From positions 128,643 through 192,642 of the forward strand of contig JAZSFR010000008.1 of the NCBI GenBank assembly GCA_045532335.1: DNA of 64,000 nt, read 5' to 3'. The position numbers and the translations under genes were made by a program. The notes under the pieces were generated by a model. It saw nothing but the letters and a program-made list of their open reading frames with translations, made no database searches and was not told the origin of the DNA. The stretch comes from Paludibacteraceae bacterium. Lineage in GTDB: Bacteria; Bacteroidota; Bacteroidia; Bacteroidales; Paludibacteraceae. Of this stretch, positions 1-49,552 are shown one piece after another (position 1 is the stretch's first letter; each line of letters opens with the position of its first letter).

Positions 1-178
1 TATTCAAGATGCTGTAAACAACATGGGTAAACCTTGCGCTCCGTTACTGCTAAAATTCTACTGGGATCAACTATCATGGGATATTATTGCTCAGCAATTG
101 GGCTATGCCAACGCCAATAGTGCGAAAACACAAAAAAACAAATGCATGAACAAACTCAAAAATCTCTTTAAAGCATAA
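1..178 (+). CDS. ECF-type sigma-70 family RNA polymerase sigma factor, C-terminal fragment (5' end outside window)
   Basis: Frame 2 is open from the window edge to TAA at 176-178. The tail ...LSWDIIAQQLGYANANSAKTQKNKCMNKLKNLFKA resembles a sigma-70 region 4.2 helix-turn-helix. A membrane anti-sigma-like ORF starts 7 nt later. Confidence 0.6.
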   Translation, partial: IQDAVNNMGKPCAPLLLKFYWDQLSWDIIAQQLGYANANSAKTQKNKCMNKLKNLFKA

Positions 179-185
179 TATTGAT

Positions 186-869
186 ATGGCGAACAATACT
201 GATTTAATAGATAAATACCTCCGCAACGAATTGACAGAAGACGAAAAAAATCAATTCGAGAGGTTACTTTCCACCTCTTCCGAGTCATTAGGGGATAAAG
301 ACCTAGCTTCAGAAGTGGATTTACAAAAGGAAATCATCATCGCTATTCAAGCACGTGGCTTGAAAGAATGCCTACAACAGAAAGAACAGCAAATACGCTC
401 ACAACGTCTTCGTACTAAGCGTATTATTAAACTTTCTAGTTGGGGCATAAGTTCTTCGTTTGTTGCTGCTATTGTAGTATTAGCTATGATATTAACGCCT
501 ATGGCAAAAATAATGAAAACTGAAAGTAGCGAATTTGCTGCGTCTATTACTATTCCTACTACAAGAGGCGTTAACGACCAATCCGACGAGTTACAAAATC
601 AACTATTCTTCGTGTATAGTTATATTTCTCAAAATCAATTTGACCAAGCCAACGAACTCGCTCAGCAATTGATTAAGGAGATACAAATATCTCAACAAAG
701 TATCACATCTGAAGAAACACAAGATATACTTGACCAAGCACAATGGCTTCACGCAATATGCGAAATGCACAAAGGTAGAGTGTTGAAGGCTAAGAAACTT
801 TTAAAACAAATTGCCAATAGTGATAGCTATTACTCAGAACGTGCACAAGAAATATTAGATAAACTATAG
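186..869 (+). CDS. putative single-pass membrane anti-sigma factor with helical/TPR-like outside domain
   Basis: 227 aa. The N-terminus MANNTDLIDKYLRNELTEDEKNQFERLL is typical of anti-sigma N-domains. There is one TM segment (SSWGISSSFVAAIVVLAMILTP) and a helical C-terminal domain. It sits directly after the sigma gene. Confidence 0.5.
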   Translation: MANNTDLIDKYLRNELTEDEKNQFERLLSTSSESLGDKDLASEVDLQKEIIIAIQARGLKECLQQKEQQIRSQRLRTKRIIKLSSWGISSSFVAAIVVLAMILTPMAKIMKTESSEFAASITIPTTRGVNDQSDELQNQLFFVYSYISQNQFDQANELAQQLIKEIQISQQSITSEETQDILDQAQWLHAICEMHKGRVLKAKKLLKQIANSDSYYSERAQEILDKL

Positions 870-878
870 AATCTATTA

Positions 879-1730
879 ATGAACAAATTTATTTATATAT
901 TATTCGCTATTTGCTTACTCGCTACCAATGTTTGTTGGGCAACTAGACATGCCACAATAATAGGTATTGGTGATTATCCTATAGAAAATGGGTGGAAAAT
1001 AATCAATGGTGATAATGACATTCCATTGGTAAGAGAAATGCTATTGGTTAATGGATTTTTACTGGATGATATACATGAATTAAAAAATGCAGAAGCAACA
1101 GCAGATGCTATACGTCAAGAATTTGATAGACTAATAGATGTCGTGCAAAAAGAGGATGTTGTATATGTACATTTTTCTGGGCATGGTCAACAGATAACAG
1201 ATTTAAATGGAGATGAAGAAGATGGATATGATGAGGCTTGGATACCTTTTGATGCTCAACTTTCTTACACAAAGGGAGAATATGAAGGGGAAAATCATAT
1301 TTTAGATGATGAGATTCATCAATATCTACTTCGACTAAAGCAATGCGTAGGAGAGAAAGGAAAAATAATAGTAGTTGCAGACGCTTGTCATAGTGGGGAC
1401 AGTTGGCGTAGCGAAGAACAAGAAGCATTAGTCATTCGAGGTGTTGCAGATAAATTTATATTGCCATTTGAAGTACAACCATATACCAATCATGAGGAGT
1501 ATATCAATTGGATTTATATTTCAGCGTGTAAATCGTATCAATCCAACTACGAATATAATGGTGTTGGCTCGCTTACTTATGCATTACATCAACAGAAGGA
1601 AAAACTTACAGAAATAACATGCGAACAATTACTAATAGAAATTCAAACTACAATAAAAAAGATTATTATTTATACTCAAACACCAATAATAGAATCAGCA
1701 TATAATAAAACGCAGTATTTATTAAAGTAA
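879..1730 (+). CDS. caspase family (peptidase C14, metacaspase/orthocaspase-like) protein with signal peptide
   Basis: 283 aa. Hydrophobic leader MNKFIYILFAICLLATNVCWA. Catalytic-dyad motifs VYVHFSGHGQ (His codon 1182-1184) and VVADACHSG (Cys codon 1386-1388), plus DGYDEAWIPFD between them. Confidence 0.8.
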   Translation: MNKFIYILFAICLLATNVCWATRHATIIGIGDYPIENGWKIINGDNDIPLVREMLLVNGFLLDDIHELKNAEATADAIRQEFDRLIDVVQKEDVVYVHFSGHGQQITDLNGDEEDGYDEAWIPFDAQLSYTKGEYEGENHILDDEIHQYLLRLKQCVGEKGKIIVVADACHSGDSWRSEEQEALVIRGVADKFILPFEVQPYTNHEEYINWIYISACKSYQSNYEYNGVGSLTYALHQQKEKLTEITCEQLLIEIQTTIKKIIIYTQTPIIESAYNKTQYLLK

Positions 1731-1764
1731 ATTTAGGAAATAACCTTTATCATTCTTGTTGTAT

Positions 1765-4700
1765 ATGCAAAAATTATTACTCCAATTCTGCTGTCTTATT
1801 ATTTCTACTTTATCGCTAGCTCAGAATAGCGAAGCATATAAACATTCTACTATTGATGCTATTAATCGTGGTGATTATGAATCTGCGTTGAGTTATATTG
1901 ATAAAGTTGAAAATTGGCATGTAGATTATGTATGTAACATAAGTTCAGCTATGTCTTTTTTGCAATATATGGACTCAATAAACTACAAATCTTTCTCCGC
2001 AGATAGTTTGTGTATTTATATTGGTAAAGAAATTCAATCTGCTGGACATCAATATTTTCAAACAAATAAGTTCGAAGAAGCTTTACATTCTTATATGCTT
2101 CAAGCAGAATTATATAAACATCACATAGGAATCTTCCATCCAGAGTTTGCAACCTCACTACATAATATAGGAATAGTATATATACATTTAAGACATTATA
2201 AGGAAGCGGAGGAATATCTATCAATCGCATGTAAACTTCGAAAAAACATATTTGGATCAAATAACATAGATTATGCTATTTCTTTAGAAGGATTAGCAGG
2301 TGTGTACATAGAGACTAAGAATTATGATAAAGCTGAAACATATTTATTAGAGTCATTGGTAATACAAAAAAATAATACAGATATTACAACTAATTTGGAT
2401 TTTGCCAACACACTAAATACATTAGGGCATTTATATCAATCTACTAAGAACTATAAAAAAGCTAAGGAGTTTCTTTATGAAGCATTGAAGATAAGACAGG
2501 AAGTGTTAGGAACTTCAAATAATACTTATGCTATAACACTTGCTAATATTGGAATATGTTGCTACAATCTTAACGATTATAAATCCGCCGAAAAACACTT
2601 ATTAATAGCGTTAGATATATTAAGAAACAATAATGATGATGATTATACTGCTTCTACATTGAATAGTTTAGGAGTACTATATAATGATCTCGGCAGGTAT
2701 AGCACGGCTAAAAAATATTTGTTCGAAGCTTTAGAGATGCGCAAATGCATATATGGATTGGAACACTCTATTTATGCAGAGACATTACATGATATAAGTG
2801 TGTTATATTATGACAATGGAGATTATCAAAGTGCCAAGGCATATGCGGTTCAAGCAATGAAGATACGTAAGAATACTTTAGGTACATCACATCCTGACTA
2901 TGTAACATCTTTACAAGGCTTAGCGCATACATATAGTTCTTTAGGTGATTATCCGACTGCTATAAAATATTATACGGAAGCATTAAATATCCAGAATACT
3001 ATATTCGGAAAAATTAATCGAAATTATGCATCGTCGCTAAACGGATTAGGAATCTGTTATTTTTATATGGAAAATTTCAATATTGCAGAACAATATTTAT
3101 TGGAAGGATTAAGGATTCGTAGAAATATATTACCAATATCTCATGTTGAACACATATTATCTCTAAATAATTTAGGTTTATTCTACAACGCCATCGGTAA
3201 TTATCAAGAGGCTGAAAACTATTTATTGGAAGCATTAAGGATTCAAGAAAGTTCAGAAGATGTGCGAGATATAGATTTCTCTAATACATTAAATTCTTTA
3301 GGAGCATTTTACACTAGTATTGGTGATTACAAAATAGCTATAAAATATTTTTCAACGGCTCTAAAGATACTAGAAAGAACAGAAAATAGTTTTGATAAAA
3401 TAGCAACATTAAATAACCTTGGGGCTATATACAATGAATTACAGAATTATTCTATATCAGAAAAATACTTACTACGAGCTCTTGATATTTTTAAAAGAAA
3501 TGAAATACTCACGCCAGACTATACAACTTTACTAAATAACATAGGGCGTCTCTATATGGATATGGCAATATACAATGAGGCTCGAACCTATCTACATGAA
3601 GCGTTAGAATTTCACGGACAGCAATTTGGTACTTCTAATCTTACTTGTGCTACTATACGAAATAACTTAGGGATGTTGTATGATATAATAGGGGAAAAAT
3701 ATGATGCTAAAATACATTTTGCAAAAGCATTAGATATTCGCAAATCAATCTTAGGAGTCACTCACCCTGATTATGCAAGTTCTTTAAATAATATAGGATG
3801 CTATTATGCATTTCATGGTAATTACGATGTCGCTGAAGCTTATTTTACTGATGCATCAAAAATTTCCAAAAAATACTTTACTCACTCGCTAAACTACCTG
3901 ACGGAGAAACAAAGAAAATTGTATTGGGAAACAGAACAATCCCGTTTTAACAATATCTATCCTATATATGTATACAAATACCACTTCTCCCAACCCTCTA
4001 TCTCCACCTTCGCTTATGATAATGAACTATTCCGCAAAGGTTTACTACTATCCTCTTCTAACATCATTCGTCAATCAATATTAGAGAGTAATGACAGCAT
4101 ACTAATAGAACAATGGAATGAATTAGTAGGGATAAAACAAGTTATTATGAATTTGGAAGAAAAAGATCCCACTTCTACTAATTTGGTTCATTATAAAAAT
4201 CAAGCAGATTCGTTAGAGAAAATTGTCACGAAATCAAGTGCGATATTTAGAGAAACTAAGCAACAACAATCTATAACATGGGATAGTATTCAGCAATACC
4301 TTAACCCCGATGAAGTAGCTATTGAATATTTTATTGCACCACTAAATGAAGATAGTACGATGTATTGCGCTCTGCTACTTCGGCACGATAGCCAGTATCC
4401 TGAGTTAATCCCTCTCTGTGAAGAAAAAGAGATTGTGAATTGTCTATCACAAAATCGCACGAATGATATATATACTTTCGATACTAATTCTAAAACAATT
4501 TTTAATCTTATTTGGGATAAAATACTTCCACAAATCCATGAAGGAGAAACGATTTATTTCTCACCAGCAGGATTGCTACATCAAATAGCGATAGAGAATA
4601 TCCCTTATAATCAAACGCACACTATGTCTGATGTATATACAATGGTGCGTTTATCCTCAACACGAGAAATTGTGAAGAAGGACAAAAGCATCAAACATCA

Positions 4701-5517
4701 CACAGCAACTATTTATGGCGGCATATTCTATGATGTAGATAAAACTTCATTGCTTGCAGAAAGTCGGAATTATGACACGGAAGATATGTTTGCCTACCGC
4801 AGCATATCATCCACACTCCCCAATCGAGGTTCCGTATTATATCTGCCAGGAACTAAACAGGAAGCAGAATCAATTCACTCGCTTTTGACTAGCAATAACA
4901 TCACATCAACATTATATACTGCATCTAAAGCAAATGAGGAGTCGTTTAAGTCGCTTAGCGGTAAACATCGCAATATTCTTCATATTGGCACTCATGGTTT
5001 CTATTGGGAAGATAGTACTGCTCGAAAACAAGATTATTTTTCTCAACGCATACAACTGCAAATGTTAGGAGATAACCAATTGCAAAAACCAAGCATAGAC
5101 CCATTGACTCGTTGTGGTTTATTATTTGCAGGTAGTAATATTGCCTTGTCTGGTCATTCTAATGATTTGCCAGAAGGTGTGCAAGATGGTATATTGACTG
5201 CCAAAGAAATATCTTTAATGGATTTACGTGATGCAGACCTTGTTGTACTCTCGGCTTGCGAAACAGCTAAAGGTGATATCACCTCAGAAGGAATCTTTGG
5301 TTTACAGCGTGCCTTCAAGATGGCTGGTGTACAAACAATCATCATGAGTCTATGGAAGGTCAACGACCAAGCAACCCAAATGCTGATGACTGAATTTTAT
5401 ACCAATTGGATTAGTAAGAATCAATCGAAGCGTGAAGCCTTCAAGAATGCTCAAAATACAGTTCGAGCAAAATTTGAAGAACCAGAATATTGGGCTGGAT
5501 TCATATTATTAGATTAA
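1765..5517 (+). CDS. TPR-repeat / CHAT-domain protease-like protein with signal peptide
   Basis: ATG at 1765 (the track ORF starts at TTG 1756). Leader MQKLLLQFCCLIISTLSLAQN. More than 12 repeats of a 42-aa kinesin-light-chain-type TPR (A.SLN.LG.LY...G.Y..A..Y..AL.I). C-terminal CHAT motifs ILHIGTHG (His codon 4993-4995) and VVLSACETAKG (Cys codon 5257-5259). Confidence 0.85.
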   Translation: MQKLLLQFCCLIISTLSLAQNSEAYKHSTIDAINRGDYESALSYIDKVENWHVDYVCNISSAMSFLQYMDSINYKSFSADSLCIYIGKEIQSAGHQYFQTNKFEEALHSYMLQAELYKHHIGIFHPEFATSLHNIGIVYIHLRHYKEAEEYLSIACKLRKNIFGSNNIDYAISLEGLAGVYIETKNYDKAETYLLESLVIQKNNTDITTNLDFANTLNTLGHLYQSTKNYKKAKEFLYEALKIRQEVLGTSNNTYAITLANIGICCYNLNDYKSAEKHLLIALDILRNNNDDDYTASTLNSLGVLYNDLGRYSTAKKYLFEALEMRKCIYGLEHSIYAETLHDISVLYYDNGDYQSAKAYAVQAMKIRKNTLGTSHPDYVTSLQGLAHTYSSLGDYPTAIKYYTEALNIQNTIFGKINRNYASSLNGLGICYFYMENFNIAEQYLLEGLRIRRNILPISHVEHILSLNNLGLFYNAIGNYQEAENYLLEALRIQESSEDVRDIDFSNTLNSLGAFYTSIGDYKIAIKYFSTALKILERTENSFDKIATLNNLGAIYNELQNYSISEKYLLRALDIFKRNEILTPDYTTLLNNIGRLYMDMAIYNEARTYLHEALEFHGQQFGTSNLTCATIRNNLGMLYDIIGEKYDAKIHFAKALDIRKSILGVTHPDYASSLNNIGCYYAFHGNYDVAEAYFTDASKISKKYFTHSLNYLTEKQRKLYWETEQSRFNNIYPIYVYKYHFSQPSISTFAYDNELFRKGLLLSSSNIIRQSILESNDSILIEQWNELVGIKQVIMNLEEKDPTSTNLVHYKNQADSLEKIVTKSSAIFRETKQQQSITWDSIQQYLNPDEVAIEYFIAPLNEDSTMYCALLLRHDSQYPELIPLCEEKEIVNCLSQNRTNDIYTFDTNSKTIFNLIWDKILPQIHEGETIYFSPAGLLHQIAIENIPYNQTHTMSDVYTMVRLSSTREIVKKDKSIKHHTATIYGGIFYDVDKTSLLAESRNYDTEDMFAYRSISSTLPNRGSVLYLPGTKQEAESIHSLLTSNNITSTLYTASKANEESFKSLSGKHRNILHIGTHGFYWEDSTARKQDYFSQRIQLQMLGDNQLQKPSIDPLTRCGLLFAGSNIALSGHSNDLPEGVQDGILTAKEISLMDLRDADLVVLSACETAKGDITSEGIFGLQRAFKMAGVQTIIMSLWKVNDQATQMLMTEFYTNWISKNQSKREAFKNAQNTVRAKFEEPEYWAGFILLD

Positions 5518-5550
5518 CATTTTTATCGTAATAACACATGATACATTCTG

Positions 5551-5579
5551 AGATGGCAATTTTTTGCCATCTTTTTTTT
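5551..5579 (+). terminator. intrinsic terminator after TPR-CHAT gene
   Basis: Stem AGATGGCA / TGCCATCT, 6-nt loop, T8 run. Confidence 0.8.
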
Positions 5580-5679
5580 GCATAAAGGTTACTTTTCATA
5601 AAGTTATGTCATATATCAACAAAATCACAAAAAAGTGTGGTAAAAAGATATAATATTAACTTCTAAACCCCCAATTCTT

Positions 5680-6315
5680 ATGAAAACTGATTTAAATCAA
5701 GCAATCTTCATGGTGAAGAAGATGATCAAACAAATTAACACCAACGCTATTGACAAGGAAAAAAGTTGTCAACAACTAAATGCTATTGTTGAATTTGCAC
5801 AACAAGAGAATATGCTGCAAGCAGCCCAAACAGCACAGAAATGTTTAATTAAATTCAAATATACCACCTATCCTAAATCATTGCTAACTAGTCTATATAA
5901 ATTAAACGCTCTATTGTGTGCGAGAAAGAAGAAAATACGCATGATGGCGTATCGTGAAGCCAAAGCAAGAGCAAGTTTTTTCTTCGGGATAAAAAATATA
6001 AAAGATAAACATGATTTATCACTATACGATGTCGTTCGAATTCCCACGCAAGGAGGTATGCATTACTCAGTCATCACAAATATCAAGCGCAAGCAAGTTG
6101 TAGAATGTTATCCGATTACTTCTACTAACCAACAGCGATTATCTTTGGTAGGATGTGATTACTATCCACTGCAATCTACTTCCGAGAACGGCGAGCAACT
6201 ATTCCTTACATCATCACGCATACAAATACCATATGATGCTGCGGCTAAAAGTTTCATCCGAAAGTATGACAATCCTGCGGAAATAAAACTCGCTTTGACT
6301 GCTTTTGCTAATTAA
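5680..6315 (+). CDS. hypothetical protein; C-terminal half resembles a MazF/PemK-fold toxin domain
   Basis: 211 aa with a helical N-terminal ~100 aa. The C-terminal segment LYDVVRIPTQGGMHYSVITN...VVECYPITSTNQQ...LFLTSSRIQIPYDA...PAEIKLALTAF parallels the MazF layout (GDIvwVdf / RPavVls / vvPiTs / dQirtid / C-terminal helix). This is by-eye similarity only. Confidence 0.45.
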   Translation: MKTDLNQAIFMVKKMIKQINTNAIDKEKSCQQLNAIVEFAQQENMLQAAQTAQKCLIKFKYTTYPKSLLTSLYKLNALLCARKKKIRMMAYREAKARASFFFGIKNIKDKHDLSLYDVVRIPTQGGMHYSVITNIKRKQVVECYPITSTNQQRLSLVGCDYYPLQSTSENGEQLFLTSSRIQIPYDAAAKSFIRKYDNPAEIKLALTAFAN

Positions 6316-8411
6316 TGTATAACCTTAGAAAAAAAACAATTATTATGGATACAACATTCACTTTCGACAAAACAAACAAGGAACAATGCCTTGCATTAGA
6401 TTTAGTGCAAAACACCAACATCAGTTTCTTTCTTACTGGTTGCGCAGGCACAGGTAAAACCACATTCTTGCAATACATTCAGCAGAATGTAAAAAAACAA
6501 TTTGTATTGGTTGCACCCACAGGTATTGCTGCGCTTGTAGCAGGTGGCACAACTATACATTCATTCTTTGGTATGCCATGGGAACCTATCACGTCAAAAA
6601 CAACATTAGATGATTTTTCTTTGAATGATTCTAAATGGGAAACTTTACGAGCAGTAGATACCATTATTATTGATGAAGTTTCAATGGTTAGGTGTGATAT
6701 GATTGATGGTATTGATAAGGTGCTACGAGCAGCTACACTATCTTCACTTCCTTTTGGCGGAAAACAAATCATCTTTTCTGGCGACTTGTATCAGTTGGAT
6801 CCCGTTTATCAAACAAACGACGAGGGGTTGGTTAATTTCTATCAAGAAGAATACCATACATACAAACCCTATTTCTTTTATGCTCATGTATTCCAACAGA
6901 TGAAATTGTTCCGCATTGAATTGCAAAAAGTGTATCGCCAAAAGGATGCTCAATTCTTATCAATACTAAAACATATTAGGCAATGTGAATATATTAGAAA
7001 TGATATAGAGCTTCTCAATACTACAGGTTTAGCAAATGACACAGTTAATCAAATGTTAGATAAAGACGAACAACTTACCTTGAGCGCCTATAGAGCAACA
7101 GTGGATGCTATCAATGAAAAAAAGTTGCAAGAATTACCAGAACCAAGTTACACCTATACTGGACAGATAGAAGGAAAATTCAACAAAAACAATTTCCCTG
7201 CCCCCATGGAATTAACATTAAAAATAGGTGCTCGCGTTATGTTTGTAAAAAATGACTCTAACCATCTTTGGGTAAATGGCACATTGGGAACAGTAGAAAA
7301 TTTATCTGAAGAAGATATCGAAGTAGTATTGGACAATGGTTTGTTAGTAAATGTAGATCGTGAGCGTTGGGATGCAATAGAATACGAATATGACAAAGAA
7401 ACAGGTGTGTTAGATAAAGTAGTGGTTGGCTCATATTCGCAATATCCATTAACTTTAGCTTGGGCAATCACCATCCATAAAAGTCAAGGTATGACCTTTG
7501 ATAAAGTGACTATTGATTTAGAGCGTGGAATCTTTGCTGCTGGACAATTGTATGTTGCACTGAGTCGTGTAACTTCACTTAAAGGTATGGCATTAAATGC
7601 AATCATTAAACCATCGTATATAAAGCCCAAAAAGGAGGTGGAACAATTTATGCAACAAAATAGACTTCTGCATGATATTGAGAATGCAATTGTTCAAAAC
7701 GAAGAATATTACAAAGCTTTTAGAAAACAAGATTATGATGTGGCTATGAAAGAAATAAATCGTCAATTTGCTTCCGCCATAGAAGCACACGATATGGATT
7801 TTGCTAATATTCTTGCAACACACCTAATGGATAACACCTATAATCCTGAAGAATTCTTAGCTGATAGTCTGCCTCAATCAGTTATGATAGAAAAAGGCAT
7901 GCGCAACATGTTGACAAACGCAATCATTAGTGCTAAAAATGCACAGTATGATGAAGCGTTAAATTATATCAGACGAGGTCTCGTTCTTCTGCCATCTACA
8001 CATCTCTACTATCTAAAAAGTATAATATTGTTTGAACTAAAAAGGTTTGAAGAAGCGAAACAATTACATATGGAATGGAAACAATATTTGAAAAAACATT
8101 ACGATGAAGTCAATACGACTTATCTTCTATGTGTTGCCCGAACTAATTTTGAGTTAGGTTTACCTTACATCAAAGAAATGCAAAGAATAATACGACGCAA
8201 CAAGAGTTATTATCCATTTATTCTTCGTCTTCGCAAGATGATGTTACATGACTATGATTATTTGGAAGAAGATAATGTATTGGCTCAAGCGTTTAATTCT
8301 TCTGATAGTGATTTTGAAGAACTTCTACGCAATAGTTCTCCAGATGACTATGAAAAATTAATTGAAGCGATATTGAAGCTTCCTATCAAAAGCGAATCTA
8401 CTTCAAAATAA
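6315..8411 (+). CDS. Pif1/RecD-family (SF1B) DNA helicase with C-terminal TPR-like helical extension
   Basis: Walker A GCAGTGKTT (6438-6464), DEVSM Walker B, Pif1-type GIDKVLRAA...PFGGKQIIFSGDLYQLDPV, and UvrD_C-like ITIHKSQGMTFDKV...LYVALSRV. About 240 aa of helical repeats follow. The start is either ATG 6315 (overlaps the upstream stop as TAATG) or ATG 6345. Confidence 0.8.
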   Translation: MYNLRKKTIIMDTTFTFDKTNKEQCLALDLVQNTNISFFLTGCAGTGKTTFLQYIQQNVKKQFVLVAPTGIAALVAGGTTIHSFFGMPWEPITSKTTLDDFSLNDSKWETLRAVDTIIIDEVSMVRCDMIDGIDKVLRAATLSSLPFGGKQIIFSGDLYQLDPVYQTNDEGLVNFYQEEYHTYKPYFFYAHVFQQMKLFRIELQKVYRQKDAQFLSILKHIRQCEYIRNDIELLNTTGLANDTVNQMLDKDEQLTLSAYRATVDAINEKKLQELPEPSYTYTGQIEGKFNKNNFPAPMELTLKIGARVMFVKNDSNHLWVNGTLGTVENLSEEDIEVVLDNGLLVNVDRERWDAIEYEYDKETGVLDKVVVGSYSQYPLTLAWAITIHKSQGMTFDKVTIDLERGIFAAGQLYVALSRVTSLKGMALNAIIKPSYIKPKKEVEQFMQQNRLLHDIENAIVQNEEYYKAFRKQDYDVAMKEINRQFASAIEAHDMDFANILATHLMDNTYNPEEFLADSLPQSVMIEKGMRNMLTNAIISAKNAQYDEALNYIRRGLVLLPSTHLYYLKSIILFELKRFEEAKQLHMEWKQYLKKHYDEVNTTYLLCVARTNFELGLPYIKEMQRIIRRNKSYYPFILRLRKMMLHDYDYLEEDNVLAQAFNSSDSDFEELLRNSSPDDYEKLIEAILKLPIKSESTSK

Positions 8412-8437
8412 ATAACCAGCTAAAAATCCTCCTAACA

Positions 8438-8926
8438 ATGAAAAAACTAATCATTCTTGCTTTATTAGCGTTTGCACTTTTTACTTCATGCCAGCAACGC
8501 CCACAAGTGTTTGGCGTTTATATTGACGGTACTTTTGAACAGTTCTTAAAAGATTTGGATAAAGAGCCATGGAAATATCCAATCAACATTGACACGATTC
8601 AGCATCTTTCTAAAAGTGAAATTTCAATAAAAGCCTATTCTACAGAGGTAATTGATCTAAATGAAGATAGTGTAAAAGTCGATTCTATCTATATCGATAT
8701 TGAATTAGAAAAAGAAAAAATCAAACAATTCTCTTACACTCTTGATATGTCGGAAACTGATTTTAAAGCCATCCAGCATGCATACGAACGCATATATGGG
8801 AGTGTAAGATACCATGATATTACTGAATATGGTAACTATTGTTCTTGGATGATAGGAAAAACATCTTTATGGCTTAGTTACGATTTTGCTGAACAACAAA
8901 CAAAATATGAATACTTTATTAACTGA
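8438..8926 (+). CDS. hypothetical lipoprotein
   Basis: 162 aa. Signal peptide plus lipobox MKKLIILALLAFALFTSC. It starts 26 nt after the helicase stop. Confidence 0.6.
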   Translation: MKKLIILALLAFALFTSCQQRPQVFGVYIDGTFEQFLKDLDKEPWKYPINIDTIQHLSKSEISIKAYSTEVIDLNEDSVKVDSIYIDIELEKEKIKQFSYTLDMSETDFKAIQHAYERIYGSVRYHDITEYGNYCSWMIGKTSLWLSYDFAEQQTKYEYFIN

Positions 8927-9604: not shown

Positions 9605-9636
9605 CTTGCATATGTGGAAAAAAAATTATACTTTTG
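9605..9636 (+). promoter_or_regulatory. promoter of thiL (-33 CTTG / -7 TActTTTG)
   Basis: TACTTTTG at 9629-9636 and CTTG at 9605-9608, with a 20-nt spacer. Confidence 0.5.
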
Positions 9637-9660
9637 TGCCCGATTTTAATATGCATAACT

Positions 9661-13455: not shown

Positions 13456-13517
13456 GCGGGACGGGCAAAGCCCTAAAGGACGCTTCGCTATAGGTTATAG
13501 GCAGTTTGTAAACTAAT

Positions 13518-13778
13518 ATGAGAGATTTAGCATCACTTCGTGAGGAGATTGACCAATTGGATGAACAGTTGTGGGGGGTTATTGGTAAGCGTGCAGATGT
13601 GGTTCGCCAAATAGGCGAATGGAAACGTCAGCACGGTGAGCAGGTAATCCAACCTGAACGATGGCAAGAGGTCTTACAACATTGTCAATCTGTAGCCGAT
13701 AGACACGGACTGAGTGAGACGGTGGTTCAAGAAGTGATGGAAGCAATACACAACGAGAGCGTCAGGATAGAGTCCTGA
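13518..13778 (+). CDS. chorismate mutase (AroQ type, small)
   Basis: 86 aa. LREEIDQLDEQLWGVIGKRADVVRQIGEWKRQHG is typical of the CM_2 helical fold. Confidence 0.75.
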   Translation: MRDLASLREEIDQLDEQLWGVIGKRADVVRQIGEWKRQHGEQVIQPERWQEVLQHCQSVADRHGLSETVVQEVMEAIHNESVRIES

Positions 13779-29784: not shown

Positions 29785-29785
29785 G

Positions 29786-29859
29786 CGGTGCGGACGGGAC
29801 TCGAACCCGCGACCCCATGCGTGACAGGCATGTATTCTAACCAACTGAACTACCGCACC
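29786..29859 (-). tRNA. tRNA-Asp (anticodon GTC)
   Basis: The reverse complement folds as a cloverleaf: acceptor GGTGCGG/CCGCACC, D arm GTTC..GAAT, anticodon stem CATGC/GCATG with loop CTGTCAC, T arm GCGGG TTCGAGT CCCGT. CCA is not encoded. Confidence 0.93.
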
Positions 29860-48192: not shown

Positions 48193-48307
48193 CAGCCCAA
48201 AATTAAGAGAGGATAAATTTGACTGCTTGCGACCTCTATAAAAGAATGCTAAAAACTTGTACCACAAGCTTCAAACAGTCGGCTTGTGGATTTTTTATCT
48301 AAACAAA
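48193..48307 (+). promoter_or_regulatory. metK 5' leader with terminator/antiterminator alternative (candidate SAM-responsive riboswitch or attenuator)
   Basis: The leader is about 110 nt between the promoter (48161-48192) and ATG 48308. The terminator is CCACAAGC (48262-48269) / GCTTGTGG (48282-48289) plus T6. A competing hairpin CTTGT (48256-48260) / ACAAG (48264-48268) uses the terminator's 5' arm. The upstream part holds AGAGG (48208-48212) / CCTCT (48233-48237) and GCUAAAAA. Confidence 0.5.
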
Positions 48308-49552
48308 ATGAATTATTTATTTACATCAGAGAGTGTCAGCGAAGGACACCCAGACAAAGTGGCGGATCAAATCAGTGACGCCATTCTAGATCAGTTTTTG
48401 GCACTTGATGCCAATTCACACGTAGCATGCGAGACTATGGTTACCACGGGACAAGTGATTGTGGCAGGCGAAGTTTCGAGCGAGAAATATGTGGATATCC
48501 AAGGTACAGTACGCAAGACTATTGCGGAAATAGGTTATACCAAATCTGCCTATAAGTTTGAGGCAGAGAGCTGCGGTATTCTAACTGCATTGCACGAGCA
48601 GAGTGCCGATATTGCCCGCGGTGTAGATGGCCAGGGTACCGAAAATGTCGGCGAGCAAGGTGCTGGCGACCAAGGTATGATGTTCGGCTATGCTACTGAT
48701 GAGACAGAGAACTATATGCCATTGACGCTTGACCTAGCACACACCTTAGTATATACGCTTGCGCGCGTACGTAAGGAAGGTAAAGAGATGCTTTATCTTC
48801 GTCCAGACTCTAAGAGTCAAGTGACCATAGAGTATAGCGAACAAGGCGAACCACTTCGTATTGATACCATTGTGGTTTCTACTCAACATGACGAGGATGC
48901 TACTCAAGAGCAGATCAAGGAAGATGTGCGACGTGTGTTGTTGCCACGCGTAGCGAAACGCGATGCTCGCTATGAGGAACTTTTGAAGGGGGACTTCAAG
49001 TTGTTGGTTAACCCAACTGGTAACTTTGTGATTGGTGGTCCTCATGGCGATACAGGTTTGACTGGCCGCAAGATCATTGTAGATACTTATGGCGGTCGTG
49101 GTGCACATGGTGGTGGTGCTTTCTCTGGTAAAGATCCTTCTAAGGTGGATCGTTCTGCGGCATATGCTGCGCGTTGGATTGCTAAAAACATGGTTGCAGC
49201 AGGTGTGGCTAAGGAAATGTTGGTGCAAATTAGTTATGCCATCGGTGTGGCTAAACCAGTGAGTGTCTGCGTGAATACCTATGGTACAGCTAAGGTGTCC
49301 ATGTCTGATGGAGAGATAGCACAAGTGGTAAACGAGATGTTTGATCTTCGTCCACAAGGTATCATTGAGGCCTTGAAACTCAAACAACCTATGTACGAGG
49401 AGACTGCTCGCTATGGACATATGGGACGCACCAATGAAGTGGTGAAAAAAGTCTTCGTGGACAATGGACAAGCCTTTGAGCGCGAGGTGGAACTCTTTAC
49501 TTGGGAAAAACTTGATCGCATAGAGGATATTAAAAAAGCTTTCAGCTTATGA
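48308..49552 (+). CDS. metK: methionine adenosyltransferase (SAM synthetase)
   Basis: [40 protein letters not shown] motifs. ATG 48308 lies 12 nt after the leader terminator. Confidence 0.97.

Follow-up and report, generated by a model that had tools for sequence, protein, structure and literature searches.

In the RseA-DegS-RseP/sigma-E pathway, a single-pass anti-sigma factor with N-in/C-out orientation is cut in the periplasm at site 1 and then by a site-2 protease, and the promoter has −35 and −10 elements of the extracytoplasmic function (ECF) type. Bacteroidetes carry many pairs of ECF sigma factors and anti-sigma factors. Here we describe a four-gene operon in which an ECF-type sigma factor and an anti-sigma-like membrane protein are encoded together with two exported caspase-fold proteases. 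The operon sits at the start of a 64,000-nucleotide (nt) stretch of DNA from a Paludibacteraceae bacterium (contig JAZSFR010000008.1; hereafter the window), whose edge cuts off the sigma gene. Our favored reading, to which we assign a probability of about one half, is that the operon and its relatives constitute an envelope-located (periplasmic), protease-gated ECF switch that feeds forward on its own proteases and on exchangeable cargo, a "split" relative of DdvA/DdvS.

Three described systems come close to this arrangement. DdvA of Myxococcus xanthus is a transmembrane anti-sigma factor with a periplasmic TPR-CHAT region, that is, tetratricopeptide repeats (TPR) joined to a CHAT domain (PMC11506125). 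The proposal is that DdvA cleaves its own linker, after which RseP acts; the protein also controls a defense island combining CRISPR with the cyclic-oligonucleotide-based antiphage signaling system (CBASS); DdvA-like proteins have been reported only in Myxococcota and one Comamonas (PMC11506125). In the type III-E Craspase, Cas7-11 is accompanied by Csx29 (TPR-CHAT), Csx30, Csx31 and RpoE/CASP-sigma, and Csx29 cuts Csx30, freeing the ECF sigma factor (PMC10028731). In the type III-B system of Haliangium ochraceum, SAVED-CHAT activates PCaspase, which cuts the sigma factor PCc-sigma and an inhibitor; the activated PCaspase is promiscuous and produces a six-log abortive phenotype (bioRxiv 10.1101/2023.06.23.546230). 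An earlier prediction made from the letters of the window (hereafter the original prediction) had held that no characterized system resembles this operon. That statement is out of date, these three being close functional precedents, though none of them has this composition.

The features of the operon and its immediate downstream region, in window coordinates, are as follows.

2-178, + strand: ORF1 (open reading frame 1), C-terminal part (region 4) of an ECF-type sigma factor; gene open at the 5' end
186-869, + strand: ORF2, single-pass anti-sigma-like protein, 227 residues
262-290, + strand: promoter-like motif of ECF type inside the anti-sigma coding sequence (codons 26-35)
879-1730, + strand: ORF3, metacaspase/orthocaspase-type C14 peptidase, 283 residues, exported as judged by eye
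1765-5517, + strand: ORF4, TPR-CHAT protein, 1250 residues from the ATG; alternative TTG start at 1756
5550-5581, + strand: intrinsic terminator at the operon end, a 10-bp stem (5550-5573) and then a T8 run
5587-5616, + strand: second promoter-like motif of ECF type, straight after the terminator
5680-8926, + strand: candidate sigma-controlled cargo unit, placed in the putative regulon by its upstream motif

The likeness to DdvA/DdvS comprises an ECF-type sigma factor with a single-pass anti-sigma factor, a periplasmic TPR-CHAT protease of the separase/craspase type with an intact His-Cys dyad, a flexible juxtamembrane linker as the proposed site-1 cut, and sigma promoters found by motif around the locus. 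In contrast to DdvA, the TPR-CHAT protein is here a separate secreted ORF with its own signal peptide and not the ectodomain of the anti-sigma factor; the anti-sigma-like protein has a small TPR-like ectodomain of its own and no CHCC zinc motif, a second protease (the metacaspase) is present, and the host phylum is Bacteroidota. The two share no sequence-level similarity, the match being one of fold only. Craspase resembles the present locus in having a TPR-CHAT protein whose substrate, shown there and proposed here, is the protein holding an ECF sigma factor, whereas Craspase is RNA-guided, cytoplasmic and devoid of a metacaspase, its Csx30 is soluble and unrelated to ORF2, and no cas7-11 was seen here among the neighboring ORFs scanned. 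In the Haliangium cascade a CHAT protease, a C14 caspase and a sigma-factor gene are likewise encoded together, but that cascade is cytoplasmic, triggered by cyclic triadenylate (cA3) through SAVED, and linked to CRISPR/CBASS; here there is a TPR sensor, both proteases have signal peptides, and the likely target is a membrane anti-sigma factor. The parallel with RseA-DegS-RseP extends to the single-pass N-in/C-out anti-sigma factor, the proposed site-1 and subsequent site-2 cuts and the ECF-type promoter. It ends at the proteases, for the site-1 candidates here are operon-encoded clan-CD cysteine proteases and not a DegS-type serine protease, and at the sensor, which is hypervariable; some loci of the present module add a trypsin-like protease. 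The module shares its logic with DdvA/DdvS, Craspase and the Haliangium cascade but is a member of none of them, and in the literature we found no paper describing this gene combination in Bacteroidetes.

Organization and recurrence of the gene set

The four genes lie on the + strand with intergenic gaps of 7, 9 and 34 nt, and the coordinates given for them in the original prediction are all correct. The strong terminator that it had placed at 5551-5579 was also borne out by the 10-bp stem and T8 run (ΔG −14.3 kcal/mol, z = −4.5; none of 200 shuffled sequences did as well), and no comparable + strand terminator exists upstream of it. Start and stop codons overlap in several orthologous loci. 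The short gaps (7-34 nt), these overlaps and the presence of one terminator argue for co-transcription of the four genes. A generic sigma-70 promoter scan was uninformative, with 58 sites against 49 expected. Close relatives of the locus are metagenome-assembled genomes (MAGs) of Paludibacteraceae from herbivore guts. Searches by exact sequence with the window caspase and with P0001, a database copy of it at 100% identity, retrieved no contig, and the DNA 5' of the window start was therefore inferred from the relatives L005-L007.

A genome scan with the anti-sigma alignment returned 18 loci, 16 of them full-length matches, in Bacteroidales, at 25-93% anti-sigma identity. The sigma gene stands immediately upstream of the anti-sigma gene in all 16 and the caspase gene follows in 14; the CHAT protein is encoded downstream wherever the flank suffices, except in L012, where an integrase-bearing insertion follows. 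A reciprocal metagenome scan was made through the caspase (40-73% identity). There, 386 caspase-anchored stretches encode a relative, and sigma and anti-sigma genes flank the caspase gene in 29 of the 34 loci counted, which were those with 1.5 kb or more to either side. Wherever the flank is long enough, the anti-sigma gene adjoins the sigma gene and is co-oriented with it. Two gene orders are found. Order A, that of the window, runs sigma, anti-sigma, (trypsin-like protease), caspase, (233-residue lipoprotein), further genes, CHAT; order B runs caspase, sigma, anti-sigma, (lipoprotein, trypsin-like protease), further genes, CHAT. Next to the cassette stand, depending on the locus, rpoBC, housekeeping genes, a RhuM gene or a DUF5906 primase gene; as its flanks differ in this way, the cassette is a unit. 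The neighborhood is therefore conserved. A chance juxtaposition of the four genes, which the original prediction had named as the reading to adopt if the order did not recur, is not borne out: the set is found far more often than chance would allow, around homologues as low as 25% in identity, in varied genomic settings and in two fixed arrangements, and we regard that explanation as refuted and its probability as negligible.

The members given above in parentheses are frequent extras that are absent from the window: a 233-residue lipoprotein without a Pfam or PHROG match, and a 380-residue exported trypsin-like serine protease (L001, L008-L011, L014, L019 and many of L023-L102). A role as inhibitor or as substrate of a protease is conceivable for the lipoprotein. 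One further arrangement is of note. Locus L055 (4979-7633) encodes an 884-residue protein that begins with a sigma region-2-like part (residues 1-110; E = 1e-21 against the sigma profile of the module) and continues with TPR and CHAT segments. It lies directly after the exported caspase and has neither a signal peptide nor a membrane segment. This protein is a natural fusion linking sigma and CHAT protease. A scan of viral contigs with the caspase retrieved distant caspases only (≤40% identity) and no module, and a prophage origin has no support from that scan.

The sigma factor and the anti-sigma-like protein

The 58-residue sigma fragment in the window has no Pfam match by itself. The fragment shares 72% identity with the C-terminal end of the complete, 174-residue orthologue in L001. 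Along its whole length this orthologue is matched by TIGR02937 (sigma70-ECF; E = 5e-10), with a score of 39.3 bits that narrowly misses the cut-off of 42.9. The profile of the sigma family (alignment A3) matches the SigW, SigH and RpoE structures over full length at E-values from 3e-7, the value for SigW, to 7e-4. The assignment of ORF1 as the region-4 end of a sigma-70-type factor is thus right, by way of the orthologue and the family profile; in the Pfam scan that had been suggested for the operon, Peptidase_C14, CHAT and TPR_12 were matched and the sigma fragment was not. Upstream of the sigma gene, most loci have a canonical Bacteroidetes sigma-A (housekeeping) promoter, TTTG-N19-TAcCTTTG. 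An autoregulatory ECF promoter was sought at this position and rejected, the position being occupied by the sigma-A promoter in most loci and by the terminator of the upstream gene in some. Two cysteines of region 4 (in PCAP... and ...KCMNKL; window 32-46 and 140-154) are invariant in 11 of 11 homologues, including the distant ones of Cyclobacteriaceae, and the orthologues in L010, L011, L015 and L020 have an insertion of 60-80 residues between regions 2 and 4.

For ORF2, the original prediction had proposed an anti-sigma topology with a short N-terminal domain, one transmembrane helix and a helical outside domain. The AlphaFold2 model (predicted local distance difference test, pLDDT, of 75) agrees with it: two short N-terminal helices precede one long helix that spans the hydrophobic segment, beyond which lie a disordered loop (121-131) and a five-helix TPR-like bundle (132-226) at pLDDT above 90. 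The hydrophobic segment (residues 86-105) is the only one in the protein and is preceded by RSQRLRTKRIIK, and ORF2 is predicted to cross the membrane once, with N-in/C-out topology. Its parts are listed here.

residues 1 to ~80: cytoplasmic N-terminal helical domain
residues ~86-105 (nt 441-500): transmembrane segment
R127-G128 (nt 564-569): basic-Gly pair in the loop
residues 132-226: periplasmic bundle

Searches of ORF2 against Pfam, NCBIfam and PDB sequences returned no match and no curated family. The N-terminal domain contains no HxxxCxxC motif and no recognizable anti-sigma domain of the zf-HC2/RskA type, and it has a single Cys. Foldseek gave weak TPR-like matches only (best E = 0.07); considering these and the lack of a PDB sequence match, no anti-sigma homology can be claimed. 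The N-terminal ~55 residues recur in other membrane proteins encoded next to sigma factors (L021, L022). By word-indexed search the family amounts to a small, unannotated set of 51 clusters; an exhaustive profile search brings up 269 representatives at E ≤ 1e-10.

R127-G128 falls in the sole low-confidence loop of the model (121-131), between the membrane helix and the periplasmic domain. The corresponding column holds Arg in 58 of 65 distinct homologues (RG in 38, RD in 16, other pairs in 4), and Arg or Lys followed by Gly or Asp is kept in 63 of the 65. The one lineage without the loop Arg has a conserved Lys-Gly 3-4 residues further on instead, and some homologues exhibit a tandem AVRG-AVRG in the loop. 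A conserved basic residue in a flexible juxtamembrane loop, encoded beside the gene of a protease with predicted basic specificity, looks like a candidate site-1 cleavage site.

The caspase and the TPR-CHAT protein

ORF3 matches Pfam Peptidase_C14 (PF00656) over profile positions 1-227 of 233 (E = 8.5e-18; 65.3 bits, cut-off 21.4). The dyad motifs that had been pointed out in it, H102 in HFSGHG (1182-1184) and C170 in DACHSG (1386-1388), are invariant in nine divergent homologues (39-71% identity) and align with HYSGHG and DSCHSG of Yca1. Among solved structures, the metacaspases Yca1 (4f6o, E = 3e-11) and MCA2 are its best relatives; ORF3 has in common with them HxSGHG, the acidic DGDEEDGYDE (DGDEEDGxD) motif and D168-x-C170. 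Orthocaspases cleave after basic residues, Arg or Lys (PMC6426788). The p20 dyad, the acidic motif and D-x-C-H-S-G imply a basic P1 residue for ORF3 as well, and the enzyme is of the metacaspase/orthocaspase type, with a predicted Arg/Lys specificity. The linker after the catalytic Cys holds an invariant R187-G188 within [VI]-R-G, which resembles the loop site of the anti-sigma-like protein. Compared with orthocaspases and type I metacaspases (Yca1 4f6o, TbMCA2 4af8), the p20 His-Cys dyad, DxDGDEEDGxD and D-x-C-H-S-G are common to all, whereas the caspase here is small, exported, single-domain and fixed in a sigma/anti-sigma operon; we found no characterized periplasmic orthocaspase in the literature. 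All caspase homologues have, as seen by eye, an N-terminal hydrophobic leader and an AxA-like site just ahead of the first strand. The Sec-type leaders that had been ascribed to both proteases are consistent with hydrophobic N-termini and AxA-like sites conserved across homologues, as judged by eye only.

ORF4 divides into two parts.

1765-3900, + strand: signal peptide (by eye) and TPR array (TPR_12 ×10, TPR_10 ×11), the strain-variable "sensor" block
3865-5517, + strand: helical middle domain and CHAT protease domain (Pfam CHAT, E = 1.9e-45)

These matches bear out the kinesin-type TPRs followed by CHAT of the original prediction, and its His and Cys codons are those of the dyad H1077 (4993-4995) and C1165 (5257-5259), which is invariant in sets of 11 and of 22 homologues. 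The AlphaFold2 model of the CHAT half (pLDDT 78.7) was searched with Foldseek. The best match was Craspase Csx29 (7xsr_C, E = 7e-11; also 8eex and 8eey), and DdvA (8rw5, 1.3e-6; 8rot, 8e-6), separase (1.7e-6) and SAVED-CHAT (8tl0, 3.6e-4) were found as well. TM-scores against these folds are only 0.3-0.4, because the match spans several domains. Against PDB sequences, the CHAT region gave no match as a single sequence and one insignificant match (E = 0.91) as a family profile. The Pfam scan revealed no toxin domain fused to either protease.

Comparison of the window with its close relatives revealed a sharply uneven pattern of nucleotide identity. The sigma gene and the cytoplasmic/transmembrane part of the anti-sigma gene are 96-99% identical, the anti-sigma ectodomain 82-84%, and the first two-thirds of the caspase gene 65-74%; the ectodomain and the N-terminal caspase part form one shared divergent block between relatives. 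The TPR array is at ~52% (unalignable) against L005 and L006 and at 99-100% against L007, and the CHAT part is at 96-98%. At the protein level, six variants are 94-100% identical from residue ~750 onward, with TPR arrays at 17-52%. Such divergent arrays beside a near-identical CHAT domain indicate that the recognition arm is exchanged and the protease kept. The same pattern of swaps is known in immune-type receptors. Tandem Repeats Finder detected no DNA-level repeat in the TPR array, which is thus not a recent expansion.

A promoter-like motif

The site at 262-290 reads GGTTACTTTC-N12-GTCATTAG, and that at 5587-5616, which lies 64 nt ahead of the next gene, reads GGTTACTTTT-N11-GTCATATAT. The motif was first noticed after the CHAT gene in the window and in one distant locus, and was searched for as GGTTAC-N14-16-GTCA. 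Across the genome loci plus the window (390 kb) there are 26 matches on the + strand and 0 on the − strand, where 1.4 are expected on both strands together; in the independent metagenome loci (640 kb) there are 32 and 1, respectively. This brings the total to 58 sense-strand matches versus one antisense. The 36 unique instances also agree, fully or nearly so, at positions that the search pattern did not specify: T follows GTCA in 36 of 36, and the two T residues after GGTTACy are present in 36 and 33 of 36. The consensus of these instances is aGGTTACyTTy-N-GTCATwwA. The whole 64-kb window contains the sites at 262 and 5587 only, even with one mismatch allowed.

The matches fall into two classes, those in or before the anti-sigma gene, and those just after the CHAT gene or further downstream, ahead of variable genes. 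In gene order B, the first class fills the gap between the sigma and anti-sigma genes; GGTTAC shares nucleotides with the sigma stop codon, and the −10 block is directly adjacent to the ATG of the anti-sigma gene. In gene order A, the motif lies ~75 nt inside the anti-sigma gene, where the codons xGG-TTA-CTT are identical in all lineages, a codon choice with an expected frequency of 0.001-0.011 per lineage. Synonymous sites are kept there in distant loci, and the −10 block is preserved even where the encoded residues differ. The second class, just 3' of the CHAT gene, recurs in the distant loci L015, L020, L077, L083 and L102. DdvS promoters (GTAA-n16-CGT) have a similar ECF-like layout (PMC6061681). 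We infer that the motif is the cognate promoter of the sigma factor of the module. Were it so, the regulon in the window would comprise the caspase and TPR-CHAT genes and the unit at 5680-8926.

An additional observation pertains to the reading frame around the internal motif. In loci of order A, anti-sigma codon 44, just 3' of this motif, is a conserved in-frame ATG, for which the window has a GTG (315-317), and several database gene calls of 173-183 residues (P0315-P0317, P0347) begin exactly at codon 44. On account of these gene calls an N-terminally truncated anti-sigma isoform starting at codon 44 is possible, if speculative.

Variable cargo and defense context

The unit downstream of the second motif is made up of three genes.

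5680-6315, + strand: o211, a 211-residue protein without a PADLOC match
6315-8411, + strand: PIF1/Dda-like superfamily 1 (SF1) helicase with a variable C-terminal extension, translationally coupled to o211 (PIF1, E = 9e-31)
8438-8926, + strand: lipoprotein-like ORF, 162 residues

The helicase matches the PHROG Dda-like helicase family at 5e-83 and, in PADLOC, the candidate families PDC-S68 and PDC-M16A and a RecD-like family. The genes at 5680-8926 are conserved in close relatives only, and with mosaic identity. In o211 a 200-nt patch (5801-6000) falls to 73-74% identity among close relatives; in the helicase (6801-8411) the C-terminal ~530 residues are ~70% identical in L005 and L007 versus 98% in L006, and the N-terminal core is at 97-99% in all. 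Homology of o211 to a 211-residue protein of L001 was considered and rejected, the two being unrelated.

In the other loci, the variable slot is situated either 5' of the CHAT gene, behind the caspase/lipoprotein genes, or 3' of it. Its occupants include AbiH (L001), a SIR2-like protein (L008, PADLOC Aga_SIR2, 3e-13), PDC-S31 (L013, 1.6e-29) and a STAND-like ATPase (L016). PADLOC matched the module itself through its generic "caspase" (1.6e-13) and "TPR" models, and the anti-sigma-like protein had no match. We saw no cas genes among the scanned neighbor ORFs, no dedicated search for CRISPR arrays having been made, and no cyclase or CBASS genes among the neighbors; Pfam detected no SAVED domain in ORF4. 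Since the helicase of the window matches candidate families only, the reading of the module as a defense system is suggestive and not established.

Interpretation

The protease-gated switch that we favor would operate as follows. A housekeeping-type promoter would maintain the sigma factor and the anti-sigma factor, along with both exported proteases at a basal level. The TPR-CHAT protein would be the sensor, its strain-variable TPR array binding an extracytoplasmic cue and thereby activating CHAT. CHAT, directly or via the Arg/Lys-specific metacaspase (as SAVED-CHAT acts on PCaspase), would then cut the anti-sigma factor at the loop Arg/Lys-Gly as site 1, and intramembrane proteolysis would next free the sigma factor. 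The freed sigma factor would transcribe from aGGTTACyTTy-N-GTCATwwA, with the site in the anti-sigma gene boosting the protease genes and the other sites driving variable cargo (o211 and the PIF1-type helicase here; AbiH, SIR2 and PDC-S31 in other strains). A more specific version, tentative at best, is a periplasmic cascade akin to innate immunity, in which TPR-CHAT would sense a cue from an invader and act through the metacaspase, the anti-sigma cut at Arg/Lys-Gly and the sigma factor to turn on defense cargo. We infer, and do not observe, who cuts whom, what the signal is and that defense is served. The sensor/protease cascade or defense module of the original prediction fits the conserved loop site, the TPR swaps, the motif and the embedded defense genes, with a presumed direction of control; its "suicide" variant is without specific support.

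Several findings weigh against the switch. Caspase-(lipoprotein)-CHAT sets without a detectable sigma/anti-sigma pair occur in 5 of the 34 metagenome loci, and L006 and L015 have sigma, anti-sigma and CHAT genes without a caspase gene, so that no single protease is obligatory. The CHAT fusion of L055 is apparently cytoplasmic. The N-terminal domain of ORF2 matches no curated anti-sigma family, and in order A the motif lies within the anti-sigma gene, an unusual location for a promoter. The window cargo (o211 and the PIF1-type helicase) is not a recognized defense system, its PADLOC matches being to candidate families only, and most cargo in other loci is without known function and much of it secreted. 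Moreover, the position of the motif ahead of the protease genes makes both proteases predicted targets of the sigma factor; an action upstream of it as well would be presumptive.

This last point leads to the most serious competing explanation, by which the proteases would be output only. The anti-sigma factor would sense through its own TPR-like domain and be processed by housekeeping site-1 and site-2 proteases, and the sigma factor would induce the metacaspase and TPR-CHAT (with the trypsin-like protease and lipoprotein where present) to act on envelope or foreign proteins, with remodeling, the breakdown of incoming toxins or phage proteins, and the maturation of secreted cargo as possible roles. 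In its favor are the ECF-type motif directly 5' of the protease genes in both gene orders, the caspase-CHAT pairs that lack sigma and anti-sigma (5 of 34) and a downstream cargo much of which is small and either secreted or lipoprotein. The hypervariable TPR might serve to recruit substrates instead of sensing. Against it, the basic-Gly of the anti-sigma loop fits the predicted specificity of the adjacent metacaspase, the fold neighbors of CHAT are all switch-type proteases of narrow specificity, CHAT/caspase proteases act on a sigma factor or its inhibitor in the three characterized systems, and the periplasmic domain of the anti-sigma factor diverges with the caspase as one block. We consider this explanation possible, and clearly less probable than the switch.

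Two further explanations appear unlikely to us, to a similar degree. One is abortive infection, in which CHAT would activate the metacaspase and broad envelope degradation would kill or arrest the cell, the sigma pair merely tuning expression. The promiscuity and six-log abortive phenotype of activated PCaspase, the AbiH and SIR2 genes inside some versions of the module and the matches to the generic PADLOC "caspase" and "TPR" models are compatible with this, but both proteases are exported (by eye), away from most essential targets, neither has a fused toxin domain, and a dedicated sigma factor with its own motif ahead of the cargo points to a transcriptional output. The other is an ordinary ECF unit for envelope stress or nutrient sensing, unconnected with phage or competitor conflict, whose variability would reflect drift of surface proteins and recombination in gut populations. 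The differing housekeeping contexts of the module, the lack of a recognized complete defense system in the window and the abundance of ECF/anti-sigma pairs in Bacteroidetes would all suit such a unit. It accords poorly with sharply bounded TPR swaps that adjoin CHAT domains of 94-100% identity, with defense genes in the variable slot, with the integrase and primase genes near some loci, and with the absence of a SusC/FecR-type partner.

Control of sigma factors by CHAT/caspase proteases in bacteria has been shown recently, and always in the cytoplasm or with the protease fused to the anti-sigma factor. A separate membrane anti-sigma factor accompanied by two caspase-fold proteases that are free and exported would be a first, and the present module is common in gut and rumen Bacteroidales. 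Its interest derives from this wide distribution, from the hypervariable sensor and from the precise, testable predictions that it affords (R127-G128, the motif, and transcription starts near 294-297 and 5618-5622). Among the questions that it makes addressable are whether a CHAT-to-caspase cascade exists beyond CRISPR/CBASS, what ligands the hypervariable TPR arrays bind, and how defense genes are inducibly controlled. If the cascade akin to innate immunity were real, it would parallel, in bacteria, the extracellular protease cascades whose signal ends in transcription, the Toll/Spaetzle pathway being one example; should the proteases be mere outputs, there is still a new ECF regulon here, marked by a clear promoter signature.

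Other features of the variable slot and of the window

A lone full-length 5S rRNA gene (Rfam, 82-89 bits) is located in the variable slot of three Bacteroidaceae MAGs (L010, 4289-4400; L012, 11697-11807; L009, ~3240-3350), with the lipoprotein or caspase gene on one side of it and the next gene on the other; L012 lacks the CHAT gene and has an integrase gene after the 5S rRNA gene. Right after the 233-residue lipoprotein gene, at the upstream edge of the slot, there is a conserved hairpin, GCCTACCTCTGATAGCAAyGGCTkTCAyAGGTrGGC (L001, ~9615-9655; L008, ~13497-13537; L009, ~3174-3215; L010, ~4226-4267). One compensatory change, T:A to A:T, distinguishes loci, and no T-run is present; recombination or processing might take place at this hairpin.

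Elsewhere in the window, two RNA features were identified. The segment 30062-30133 (+ strand) matches the Bacteroidetes FopS small RNA family of Rfam at 77.7 bits and adjoins a tRNA-Asp gene (29785-29859, − strand). A SAM-II (long-loop) riboswitch (48203-48262, + strand; 56.7 bits) is found at the start of the ORF at 48257-49552.

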